A DNA stretch of 64,000 bases from an uncultured Chloroflexia bacterium (GCA_963746845.1 CAVVCZ010000006.1:409008-473007), one strand, 5' to 3'. Positions 54,444-62,766 are shown, counted from the stretch's first letter. The notes: generated by a model from the letters alone, not told the origin. Numbers and translations are program-made.

Positions 54444-56375
54444 GTGCCGAAGGACTACGTTCGTCTGACCCAGCCCCTCGTTCGCGATTCGAAGGACGCA
54501 CCCCTGCGCCCCGCGAGCTGGGACGAGGCCCTGACCCGGGTCGTCGCGGGCTTCGAGGCGGCGAAGGCCGCCCACGGACCCACGACGTTCGGTGTCTTCT
54601 CGTGCTCGAAGGCGACCAATGAGGTCAACTTCGCGGCGCAGAAGTTCACCCGGGCCGTGCTGGGCAGCAACAACATCGACAGCTGCAACCGGACCTGACA
54701 CGCCCCGAGCGTCGCCGGTCTGGCGATGGTGTTCGGTGCCGGTGGCGGCACAAGTTCATACCGTGAGATCGAAGAGACGGACCTGATCGTCCTGTGGGGC
54801 AGCAACGCCCGCGAGACGCACCCGATCTTCTTCCATCACCTCCTCCGCGGCGTCCGCAACGGCGCCCGGCTGTACGCGGTCGACCCACGCCGGACGAGCA
54901 GTGCCGAGTGGGCGGACACGTGGCTCGGGCTCGACGTCGGGAGCGACATCGCGCTGGCCAACGCCGTCGGCCGCGAGATCATCGCCGCCGGTCTCGAGAA
55001 CGAGGCGTTCATCGCGCGGGCAACGGAGGGCTTCGAGGCCTATCGGTCGAAGGTCGAGCCCTACACGCTCGAGTACGCCGAGCGCGAGACGGGTGTCCCC
55101 GCCGACGCGATCCGCGAGCTCGCCCACGCCTTCGCGAAGGCCGACAAGGCGATGATCTGCTGGACCCTGGGCATCACCGAGCACCACAACGCGGTCGACA
55201 ACGTCCTCGCCCTCATCGACCTCGTGCTGCTGACCGGTCACATCGGTCGCTGGGGCAGCGGCGTGAACCCGCTCCGCGGCCAGAACAACGTCCAGGGTGG
55301 CGGCGACATGGGCGCCCTGCCGAACCGGCTGCCGGGCTTCCAGCACGTCGAGAACGAAGCGCTTCGCGCGAAGTTCGACGAGGCGTGGGGCGTCACCGTC
55401 CCGCCCCACCGCGGCTGGCATCTCTCGGAGATGTTCGACGCCATGGAGCGCGACGAGCTCCGGGCCATCTACTGCATCGGCGAGAACCCCGTCCAGTCCG
55501 AGGCCGACCAGACGCGGACGAAGCACCTCCTCTCGACCCGGGACTTCATGGTCGTCCAGGACATCTTCCTGACCGCGACGGCGGAGCTCGCGGACGTCGT
55601 GCTGCCGGCCGCCGCGTCGTGGGCGGAGAGCGAGGGCACGGTCACGAACTCGGAGCGACGCGTCCAGCGGGTCCGGAAGGCGCTCGAACCGCCGGGCGAG
55701 GCGCGCGACGACCTGTGGATCATCGTGGACATCGCCCGCCGGATGGGCTCCGACTGGAGCTGGCAGACCGCGGAGGACGCCTGGAACGAGCTGCGGACCC
55801 TGTCGCCCGTCCACGCGGGGATGTCCTATCGGCGACTGGAGGAGCTCGGCGGGATCCAGTGGCCGTGCTACGACGAGAACCACCCGGGTGAGCCGTTCCT
55901 CCACAGCCGGCTCTGGGAGGACCCGGTCCCGGGCAACCGCGTGCCGTTCGTGCCGGTCGACCACGACCCGCCCGTCGACAAGCTGGACGCCGACTATCCA
56001 ATCCGGCTGACGACCGGCCGCCGACTCGAGTCGTACAACACCGGCGTCCAGACCGGGGGCTACACCTCCCCGTTGCGGCGCGGCGAATCCCTCGACATCT
56101 CGCCGGAGGACGCGCTGACCTACGGTCTGGCCGACGGCGAGCGGGTGCGGGTCGTGTCGCGCCGCGGCCAGGTCGAGACGCCGATCCGGATCGACGAGGG
56201 CCTGCGACCGGGCCTGACGTTCATGACGCTCCACTTCCAGGACGACGTCGCGACGAACCTTCTGACCATCGATGCGACCGATCCGAAGTCCGGCACGGCC
56301 GAATTCAAGGCGACCGCAATCCGGATCGAGAAGCTGTCTGTTCCCGACGGGGCGGGTGCCGTCGTCGGGTCCTGA
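54444..56375 (+). CDS. fdhA: formate dehydrogenase catalytic (Mo/W-bis-PGD) subunit, selenocysteine-containing, lacking the N-terminal Fe-S domains
   Basis: ORFs 54294..54698 and 54726..56375 are in the same frame and are joined by TGA 54696-54698 in the context IDSCNRT-U-HAPSVAGL (compare E. coli FdhF CCARVUHGPSVAGL). GTG 54444 follows GAGG. The sequence is molybdopterin oxidoreductase/MopB-like throughout, with a C-terminal ...EFKATAIRIEK. Confidence 0.9.
54696..54698 (+). other. in-frame UGA selenocysteine codon
   Basis: TGA sits between two same-frame halves of the FDH gene, at the conserved active-site position. selA, selB, selC and selD are all present within 7 kb. Confidence 0.88.
54699..54735 (+). 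promoter_or_regulatory. bacterial SECIS element
   Basis: cacgccccgagcgtcgcc-GGTC-tggcgatgg. A 7-bp stem (54710-54716 / 54722-54728) carries a GGUC(U) apical loop starting 19 nt after the UGA. That is the same spacing and loop as the E. coli fdhF SECIS (UGACACGGCCCAUCGGUUGCAGGUCUGCACC). Confidence 0.8.
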
Positions 56376-56396
56376 CCGGACGAGGCGCGGCGAATT

Positions 56397-61744: not shown

Positions 61745-62766
61745 GCCTCCACCCACCGCCCCCGCCGGACGAGCCGGTCCCACCGATCCTCCTCGAGCCC
61801 CCGGCCCGACCGAGCCGGCTGCCCGCCGCCCCGCCGGAGCCGCCGCGCGCCCCGGTCGAGCTGACCATCGACGGCGTCGCCGTCAGCGTGCCCGCCGGCT
61901 CGACGATCCTCGACGCCTGCCGTGCCCAGGGGATCGACACGCCGACCCTCTGCTACCTCGAGAACCTGACGCCGGTCAACGTCTGTCGCGTCTGCGTGGT
62001 CGAGGTCACGGGCTCGCGCGTCCTCGTCCCGGCCTGCTCGCGCAAGGCCGAGCCGGGGATGGAGGTCCAGACCGACACGGACCGGGTTCGCCTCAGCCGG
62101 AAGATGGTCCTCGAGTTCCTCGGCTCGTCGGTCGACCTGTCGACGGCACCGTCGGCGCTGGACTACATCGATCGCTACGACGCGGATCCCGACCGGTACG
62201 GCCCGCCCGCCGCGCCCGCCGGAGCCGGCGAGCGCGACGCCCACGAGGCCGGTCACCACCACGCGCCGCCGGTCGATTCCGCGCAGACCGTCCACCAGCC
62301 GGTCAAGGTGGACAACGAGCTGTACGTCCGCGACTACGCGAAGTGCATCCTCTGCTACAAGTGCGTCGAGGCGTGCGGCGAGGATGCCCAGAACACGTTC
62401 GCGATCGCCGTCGCCGGCCGCGGGTTCGACGCCCGGATCTCGACGGAGGCGGCGGTCCCGCTGCCGGACAGCGCGTGCGTCTACTGCGGCAACTGCATCG
62501 GGGTCTGCCCCACCGGTGCGCTGATGTTCCGGTCCGAGCACGAGATGCGCGCGGCCGGCACGTGGGACGAGGGCGCCCAGACCATGACGGAGACGATCTG
62601 CCCCTACTGCGGCGTCGGCTGCTCGCTGGAGCTCCACGTCCAGGACAACGAGATCGTGAAGGTCACCTCGCCGCTCGACTCGTCGGTCACCGACGGCCAC
62701 CTCTGCATCAAGGGCCGGTTCGGCTTCCAGTTCGTCCAGAACCGCGGGCCGCGCGACAACCCGTGA
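61741..62766 (+). CDS. NuoG/FdsA-type Fe-S subunit: 2Fe-2S + 4Fe-4S ferredoxin domains + Mo-proximal [4Fe-4S] domain, truncated before the molybdopterin domain
   Basis: GTGA overlap with the NuoEF gene. CYLENLTPVNVCRVCVVE...PAC; CILCYKCVEAC and CVYCGNCIGVCP; then ICPYCGVGCSLELHV...GHLCIKGRFGFQFVQNRGPRDNP*, the Molybdop_Fe4S4 domain. The stop comes where FdsA/FdhF homologues continue into the catalytic domain. Confidence 0.88.
   Translation: MSLHPPPPPDEPVPPILLEPPARPSRLPAAPPEPPRAPVELTIDGVAVSVPAGSTILDACRAQGIDTPTLCYLENLTPVNVCRVCVVEVTGSRVLVPACSRKAEPGMEVQTDTDRVRLSRKMVLEFLGSSVDLSTAPSALDYIDRYDADPDRYGPPAAPAGAGERDAHEAGHHHAPPVDSAQTVHQPVKVDNELYVRDYAKCILCYKCVEACGEDAQNTFAIAVAGRGFDARISTEAAVPLPDSACVYCGNCIGVCPTGALMFRSEHEMRAAGTWDEGAQTMTETICPYCGVGCSLELHVQDNEIVKVTSPLDSSVTDGHLCIKGRFGFQFVQNRGPRDNP

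Follow-up and report, generated by a model that had tools for sequence, protein, structure and literature searches.

The stretch of DNA considered here, 64,000 nucleotides from an uncultured Chloroflexia bacterium (GCA_963746845.1 CAVVCZ010000006.1:409008-473007; hereafter the window), encodes the parts of a predicted molybdenum- or tungsten-dependent (Mo/W) formate dehydrogenase (FDH) whose alpha subunit is divided over two genes. One of these, the Mo gene, encodes the catalytic domain that would hold the bis-pyranopterin guanine dinucleotide (bis-PGD) cofactor, and the other, the Fe-S gene, encodes an iron-sulfur protein that ends with the domain of the Mo-proximal [4Fe-4S] cluster (FS0). 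A gene for a NuoE–NuoF fusion (nuoEF) lies between them, and genes for selenocysteine (Sec) incorporation and for an FdhD-type sulfurtransferase are found nearby (Table 1). An earlier note, made from the sequence of the window alone, had pointed out the two halves and had proposed either a naturally heterodimeric alpha subunit, with FS0 on the electron-transfer subunit, or a recent rearrangement.

Table 1. Features of the locus, with positions counted from the first nucleotide of the window
Feature	Position	Strand	Basis
Sec machinery: selB (-), selA (-), tRNA-Sec (-), major facilitator superfamily (MFS) transporter (+), selD (+)	47808..53572		Domains, tRNA
Catalytic Mo/W-bis-PGD subunit, selenoprotein of ~643 aa, no FS0	54444..56375	+	PF00384, PF01568, TIGR01591
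UGA selenocysteine codon, in frame (NRT-U-HAPS)	54696..54698	+	Translation; relatives
Hairpin resembling a selenocysteine insertion sequence (SECIS), GUCGCC-GGUCU-GGCGAU	54711..54727	+	Comparative alignment
Inserted non-enzyme genes: extracytoplasmic function (ECF) sigma factor, putative anti-sigma factor, unknown 157-aa open reading frame (ORF), GYD, SRPBCC	56925..59850	+	Pfam
Diaphorase, NuoE-like [2Fe-2S] fused to NuoF-like flavin mononucleotide (FMN)/NAD(H)/[4Fe-4S], 612 aa	59906..61744	+	PF01257, PF01512, SLBB, PF10589
Fe-S subunit, 341 aa	61741..62766	+	[2Fe-2S], two ferredoxin-type [4Fe-4S], FS0 domain
FdhD/FdsC-type sulfurtransferase, Mo cofactor maturation	63399..64000	-	PF02634, E 2.6e-56

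The two halves of the alpha subunit

The Fe-S subunit contains a Fer2_4 domain (residues 37-113), a 4Fe-4S dicluster domain (residues 199-261) and a complete PF04879 domain (Molybdop_Fe4S4; residues 282-334, profile positions 3-55 of 55, E 1.6e-19). Its gene stops 7 residues past PF04879, ending in ...FVQNRGPRDNP, so that the ORF list, the translation and the Pfam search all agree with the domain content and the RGPRDNP end that had been claimed for it. None of the NCBIfam models has a cut-off that this protein passes, and the names under which it currently appears in sequence sources are '2Fe-2S cluster-binding protein', 'YjgC' and 'HndD'.

The Mo gene begins with a GTG codon, preceded by a GAGG motif (54434-54437) at a spacing of 6 nt. 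The Mo genes of relatives begin, usually with ATG, 1-6 residues before a conserved Y-x-R-L-T-x-P-L-V-R motif, which supports the GAGG-GTG start at 54444 that the earlier note had chosen. The encoded protein consists of PF00384 (residues 7-432, profile positions 1-352 of 353, E 1.5e-70) followed by the molybdopterin guanine dinucleotide-binding domain PF01568 (residues 521-624, E 4.3e-26). PF04879 was not found in it by the Pfam scan, and the N-terminal FS0 that FdhF- and FdsA-type catalytic subunits carry themselves is thus missing. Its active site reads NRT-U-HAPSVAGL and NPLRGQNNVQG and aligns with FdhF and FdhA, including the Sec/Cys-His dipeptide and the active-site arginine (U140, H141 and R333 in FdhH); all 57 readable relatives have the stretch CNRT-U-HAP. 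Against TIGR01591 the protein scores 667.7 bits, with a cut-off of 666.25, and this marginal score results from the absence of the first 52 profile positions.

Placed side by side, the two proteins cover what is one chain elsewhere. Residues 30-335 of the Fe-S subunit align with residues 16-306 of Rhodobacter capsulatus FdsA (6tg9/9wxb), and residue 7 of the Mo subunit corresponds to residue 308 of FdsA and to residue 61 of Escherichia coli FdhH. The best matches of the Mo subunit in the PDB (FdhF, FdhA and FdsA) likewise begin at their residue 61 or 308. TIGR01591 is covered from position 1 to 50 by the Fe-S subunit and from 53 to 672 by the Mo subunit. These alignments show that the halves abut without loss or overlap, as the check suggested in the earlier note demanded, and they place the break in the linker equivalent to FdhH residues 55-60, where it had been expected. 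No second copy of either half occurs in the 64-kb window. The P-[RK]-D string shared by the two pieces, which had been read as a possible short duplication at the breakpoint, does not hold up: the tails that follow FS0 are variable and unconserved among 80 relatives, and the resemblance in this genome is therefore due to chance.

Conservation of the split across phyla

A scan of one genome per species gave 599 pattern matches, of which 504 were confirmed as relatives by tblastn, and the best 80 loci (designated with L below) were examined. The 504 relatives come from Chloroflexota, Acidobacteriota, Actinomycetota, Planctomycetota, Rokubacteria, Gemmatimonadota and others, and the family is common in soil and freshwater metagenomes. 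The labels of the metagenome-assembled genomes (MAGs) assign the 80 loci to Chloroflexota/Limnocylindria, Actinomycetota, Acidobacteriota (Terriglobia, Bryobacterales, Thermoanaerobaculia), Planctomycetota (Isosphaeraceae, Gemmata), Rokubacteria, Gemmatimonadaceae, Vulcanimicrobiota and Binatia, and complete long-read chromosomes are among the loci (OZ244775, OZ253463, OZ253507).

Both halves are held by 66 of the 80 loci, in all 66 as separate genes, on one strand and in the order Mo gene, nuoEF, Fe-S gene. A search of related genomes for the same split and synteny, as had been proposed, thus comes out in agreement at each locus with both halves. The earlier description of the halves as 'in reversed order and ~5.4 kb apart' stands as to the order, while the spacing is peculiar to the lineage of the window. 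A tight operon is usual, with a gap between the Mo gene and nuoEF of at most 260 nt in 41 of the 66 loci (often 5-50 nt, once overlapping); the gap is at least 635 nt in 24 loci, all of them Limnocylindria-type and closest to the window. Two loci on long contigs (L001, 755 kb; L002, 1.79 Mb) contain the Mo gene, one or two small genes, the NuoE–NuoF fusion and the Fe-S gene, with FdhD adjoining, and in both the Mo gene has been cut at its UGA by the gene caller.

The boundary itself is equally constant. In 80 of 81 loci, the Fe-S gene stops 3 to ~40 residues past the last FS0 motif. At the exception (L051:10001-~13000), the gene runs hundreds of residues beyond FS0 with no Mo gene nearby, probably through a frameshift or because the copy is degraded. 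Among database homologues, the best 120 matches of the Fe-S protein of the window are 315-422 aa long with a Pfam string that always ends in PF04879, and the best 120 matches of an acidobacterial Fe-S protein measure 297-347 aa and have the identical string. FS0 remnants were absent from 61 regions upstream of Mo genes, as were Mo-domain remnants from 81 regions downstream of Fe-S genes. All three genes are under purifying selection. When the window is compared with five relatives, the ratio of nonsynonymous to synonymous substitution rates (dN/dS) comes to 0.08-0.23 in the Mo gene, 0.15-0.25 in nuoEF and 0.15-0.28 in the Fe-S gene.

These observations decide between the two explanations that the earlier note had left side by side. 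The distance of 5.4 kb, the non-canonical order and the unrelated genes between the halves could all be taken to indicate a recent rearrangement, a misassembly or the decaying pieces of an fdsA gene in this one genome. Such an event is practically excluded, as the identical split, boundary and order recur in independent assemblies of several phyla, some of them complete chromosomes or contigs of megabase size, while decay is contradicted by dN/dS values of 0.08-0.28, by the retention of all ligands and by the lack of remnants of the missing halves. The three independent long-read chromosomes also make a systematic assembly artefact shared by all loci very unlikely. The same evidence (66 of 66 loci, selection and kept ligands) supports a natural heterodimeric alpha subunit, with FS0 residing on the electron-transfer subunit.

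Halves that abut exactly could, in principle, be joined after translation into a single-chain alpha subunit, for example by a split intein. We regard this as barely conceivable: a variable post-FS0 tail of 3 to ~40 residues and a Mo protein that begins 1-6 residues before YxRLTxPLVR leave no room for intein fragments (~100 and 35 residues), and the Pfam scan detected no intein domain.

Ligand cysteines for the [2Fe-2S] cluster, the two [4Fe-4S] clusters and FS0 are retained in 81 of 81 Fe-S subunits. The motif HxxxCxxCx5C of the His-ligated cluster (A4 in FdsA, N5 in NuoG) is present in none of the 81; the family has lost this [4Fe-4S] cluster of FdsA. The R. capsulatus structure has A4 at the dimer interface, off the route that leads from bis-MGD to FMN (PMC7171172). 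The loss of A4 therefore does not conflict with activity, and it predicts another quaternary structure for the split family. The region that replaces the lost A4/N5 motif (62083-62295, residues ~115-185 of the Fe-S subunit) is conserved across phyla and hence no loose linker; its conserved features are SSVDLSTAP..., RD... and two invariant histidines at 172-173.

Selenocysteine decoding

Neither the in-frame UGA of the Mo gene nor the loss of the His-ligated cluster nor the purifying selection had been mentioned in the earlier note. TGA is found at the identical position, where FdhH-type enzymes have their metal ligand, in 57 of 57 readable relatives. Because of the in-frame TGA, ORF callers split the Mo gene in two (54294..54698 and 54726..56375).

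A SECIS-like hairpin begins 12 nt past the UGA, its first stem base being the 16th counted from the U of UGA. Its GGUCU apical loop matches that of E. coli fdhF. Among the window and 60 related loci, 59 of the 61 have this loop, and L057 and L072 have GGGCU. Compensatory changes have occurred in the stem, which reads GUGGUC...GGCCAC in L046, L065, L077 and L081, and GUCGUC...GACGAC in L054. Folded as a single sequence, the hairpin of the window is not significant (z 0.12), so that its support is comparative, and no Rfam family matched it at E values up to 1.

The tRNA-Sec gene (51114..51212, minus strand) scores 72.7 bits, and SelA, SelB and SelD domains are all present. The locus thus contains every element expected of a bacterial selenoprotein: the UGA, a SECIS hairpin, tRNA-Sec and SelA/B/D. 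The selA/selD neighbourhood is also found in 11 related Chloroflexota-type loci.

The full selenocysteine toolkit lies directly 5′ of the selenoprotein gene (window 47808-54243). The interval includes, after selD, a gene of glycosyltransferase family 2 (GT2) with a weak MobA-like match (53560..54243), and the synteny of selD, GT2 gene and Mo gene is seen again in L001, L003 and L005.

Surrounding genes and the spacing of the halves

The stop codon of nuoEF overlaps the start of the Fe-S gene (GTGA, 61741-61744), which suggests that the two genes are translationally coupled. Downstream, the FdhD frame is open to the end of the window and the gene runs past it; FdhD is encoded at most 10 kb away in many related loci.

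The ECF sigma/anti-sigma, GYD, SRPBCC and NuoEF genes reported between the halves are indeed there, together with the additional 157-aa ORF. About 3.5 kb of unrelated inserted genes separate the Mo gene from nuoEF in this genome, and the 5.4 kb between the halves thus result from gene insertion, within the Limnocylindria lineage, into a usually tight operon. Only the closest relative, L003 (91-95% identity), has the 157-aa ORF, GYD and SRPBCC genes as well. The ECF sigma and putative anti-sigma genes (56925-58369) stand between the Mo gene and nuoEF, and the pair is absent from the corresponding place in every related locus. Since even L003 does not have it, the pair is a very recent insertion into a former operon. 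A DUF5946 gene occupies the interval in two Limnocylindria relatives (L001:7577-8086, L002:7562-8083), and with such varied small genes in it (DUF5946, glyoxalase, GYD, SRPBCC), the slot looks like an insertion hotspot.

Just 3′ of the Mo gene lies an ORF of 99 aa on the minus strand (56397-56696), with a signal-peptide-like N-terminus and no Pfam match. If this ORF is real, the Mo gene is not co-transcribed with the other genes of the enzyme. Scans for promoters and terminators were uninformative.

Comparison with known systems

The subunit set resembles that of the FdsABG(D) enzymes of R. capsulatus and Cupriavidus necator (6tg9, 9wxb, 6vw7), with which it shares NuoE, NuoF, NuoG-N-terminal-like, FS0 and Mo-bis-PGD modules, as well as FdhD/FdsC. 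The NuoF-like and NuoE-like parts are present here in one protein of 612 aa, and FdhD/FdsC is encoded nearby. The two subunits align with FdsA over residues 16-306 (Fe-S subunit) and 308-934 (Mo subunit). FdsA, however, is one chain, whereas here it is divided over two genes, the cut lying between the FS0 and Mo domains. The gene order G-B-A of FdsABG is replaced by Mo-EF-FeS with NuoE and NuoF fused, and the His-ligated A4 cluster of FdsA is lost. FdsABG has Cys in place of Sec, and no FdsD was seen here.

A second similar enzyme is the tungsten-dependent FDH1 of Methylorubrum extorquens (7e5z, 7vw6), which has a fused NuoE-NuoF beta subunit and a NuoG-like extension of alpha. The beta subunit matches of our NuoEF protein in the PDB include 6vw7_B, 6tg9_B and 7e5z_B (337 bits), the last of which is this fusion. 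The M. extorquens enzyme has FS0 and Cys on an undivided alpha chain of 989 aa, while here alpha is split and uses Sec.

For the Mo half, the top solved relatives are of the FdhF types (E. coli FdhH, 1aa6; FdhF of the Thermoanaerobacter kivui hydrogen-dependent CO2 reductase (HDCR), 7qv7; archaeal FdhA, 7bkb and 9t1s), at 477-515 bits. They have in common with the Mo half a Sec-His active site and, 3′ of the UGA, a SECIS hairpin. FdhF types differ in that FS0 sits in their own first 60 residues, while the Mo protein described here begins at the equivalent of residues 55-61.

A Mo/W-bis-PGD catalytic unit divided over two polypeptides also exists in formylmethanofuran dehydrogenase, as FwdB/FwdD (FmdB/FmdD), and we know of no other split unit of this kind. 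FwdB appeared as a weak match in the NCBIfam search. The cut is at the opposite end, however, with domain IV (PF01568) separate and FS0 staying with the catalytic domain. Finally, the split has to be kept apart from the 'splits' that gene callers introduce at the UGA of Sec FDHs (such as P0238, P0245 and P0253, ending ...NNIDxCxRx). These likewise show Fer2_4, Fer4 and PF04879 and no full Mo domain, but they are annotation artefacts of one gene that end ~80 residues into the Mo domain, whereas here there is a true stop and a separate Mo gene.

Origin of the split

A search of a representative library, which returned mostly short-contig fragments, gave nearest fused relatives that are at most 41% identical. 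Overall, identity to the nearest fused relatives found is 33-38% for the Fe-S half and 42-46% for the Mo half. Family members across phyla are 64-95% identical to the window, and this gap marks the split clade as distinct and, judging from these identities, as probably having arisen once. One of the fused enzymes, a Sec-containing FdsA-like FDH (L017:9517-15239, minus strand; order fdhD-fdhA-nuoE-nuoF), belongs to a Limnocylindrales MAG that also has the split operon. In this fused paralogue the motif of the His-ligated cluster is still present, and between its Mo part and the Mo subunit of the window the identity is 46%.

Rotating the orders fdhA-nuoE-nuoF and fdsG-B-A cyclically, with one break at the boundary between FS0 and Mo domain, gives the order Mo-EF-FeS/FS0. 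We hypothesize that the operon was duplicated in tandem and then lost its outer pieces, which would yield exactly such a rotated order.

We also considered a chimera of an FdhF-type Mo half and an FdsA-type FeS/FS0 half; this is unsupported and, moreover, thinly sampled. Although FdhF types score above FdsA in PDB matches of the Mo half, the fused L017 paralogue (46% identity) is closer than E. coli FdhF (40%), and the ranking is thus no proof of a chimera. The FS0 domain alone does not discriminate between FdhF and FdsA types.

The nearest full-length matches to the Fe-S subunit (P0249, P0251 and P0240) are NuoG/FDH-like proteins of 770-976 aa, two of them with a NuoE-like domain at the C-terminus. 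They keep FS0 and have no Cys/Sec-His motif, and are probably non-catalytic relatives.

A probable three-subunit formate dehydrogenase

A subunit set like that of FdsABG and M. extorquens FDH1, the Sec-His and Arg motifs and the adjacent FdhD make a heterotrimeric, soluble FDH the best-supported reading of the locus. Most likely, the three genes belong to a conserved family of three-subunit Mo/W Sec-FDHs, probably linked to NAD(P)+, in which FS0 is supplied in trans. The catalytic subunit would hold the bis-PGD cofactor, with Sec as metal ligand and no Fe-S cluster of its own, and the FS0 at the C-terminus of the NuoG-N-terminal-like Fe-S subunit would dock non-covalently onto it. Electrons from formate would pass from Mo/W(Sec) to FS0, then over the two ferredoxin-type [4Fe-4S] clusters and the [2Fe-2S] cluster to the NuoF [4Fe-4S] cluster, FMN and finally NAD+, with the NuoE–NuoF fusion acting as diaphorase. 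FdhD would sulfurate the cofactor.

One could instead regard NuoEF and the Fe-S subunit as a general diaphorase module (HoxFU/HndD-like), with the Mo subunit serving another partner or being a different Mo enzyme. This might account for the generic names 'HndD' and 'YjgC' given to the Fe-S protein, for the separation of the genes in this genome and for a TIGR01591 score of only ~1.5 bits above the cut-off. We consider it improbable. The Mo gene is linked on the same strand to nuoEF and the Fe-S gene in 66 of 66 loci, usually tens of bases from nuoEF; PF04879 is known solely as a partner of molybdopterin domains, and the catalytic subunit would be left with no other outlet for its electrons. 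The score is low because the protein lacks the first 52 profile positions, and an FDH, rather than a different Mo enzyme, is indicated by the U-H and Arg motifs together with the neighbouring FdhD.

A further question concerns direction and acceptor. Metal-dependent FDHs are reversible (PMC7171172), glycine-cleavage and methionine-synthase genes lie near some loci, and the best PDB matches of NuoEF include subunits of bifurcating hydrogenase and Nfn. An enzyme working mainly in reverse (as a CO2 reductase in a reductive C1 pathway) or with another acceptor (NADP, ferredoxin) is nonetheless unlikely given a subunit set as in the NAD+-linked FdsABG and M. extorquens FDH1. Bifurcating NuoF types, moreover, often come with extra clusters, and the Pfam scan, which is not a detailed check, gave no further 4Fe-4S domain in NuoEF.

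Several points weigh against the trimeric NAD(P)+-linked FDH and the origin proposed for it. In this genome, the Mo gene and the nuoEF–Fe-S gene pair are probably separate transcription units, so that stoichiometric co-expression is not guaranteed. The association of the halves, the enzyme activity, NAD+ as acceptor and the catalytic direction are all things that we infer. The AlphaFold2 (AF2) model of the Fe-S subunit alone, built with 29 homologues, was too poor to be used (mean predicted local distance difference test (pLDDT) score 52.6). Cultured organisms are missing among the best matches, which are all metagenome-assembled genomes or contigs, and the top 120 matches of the acidobacterial query are likewise metagenomic sequences only. 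For the cyclic permutation, which we likewise infer, the sampling of fused relatives is thin, at four sequences.

Novelty and significance

Full-text literature and NCBIfam searches gave no description of an FDH catalytic subunit without FS0, although their coverage of subscription journals was incomplete and the absence is no proof; as far as this searching reached, the remark that the architecture is undescribed holds. To our knowledge, in Mo/W-bis-PGD enzymes with FS0 this proximal [4Fe-4S] cluster is part of the catalytic polypeptide. That the loci form a large undescribed Sec-FDH clade with FS0 in trans, the first such partition in the dimethyl sulfoxide (DMSO) reductase superfamily, with a single origin by cyclic permutation and a spread across soil phyla, is a proposal whose chances we rate as even. 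What the locus offers is a rearrangement of familiar modules that is real, widespread and apparently unrecognised, with no sign of altered chemistry.

If FS0 comes from another subunit, electron transfer from the pterin to FS0 can cross a protein–protein interface, and this is relevant to the way in which complex I evolved from NuoG, FdsA and hydrogenase modules. The engineering of CO2-reducing FDHs may also benefit from a catalytic module of ~70 kDa that is cluster-free by nature and has its wiring on a separate module. With generic names for the Fe-S subunit and a marginal score for the Mo half, metabolic surveys of soil and freshwater metagenomes can easily overlook or mis-score the enzyme. 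For lineages such as Limnocylindria and Acidobacteriota, its presence would also imply a need for selenium.

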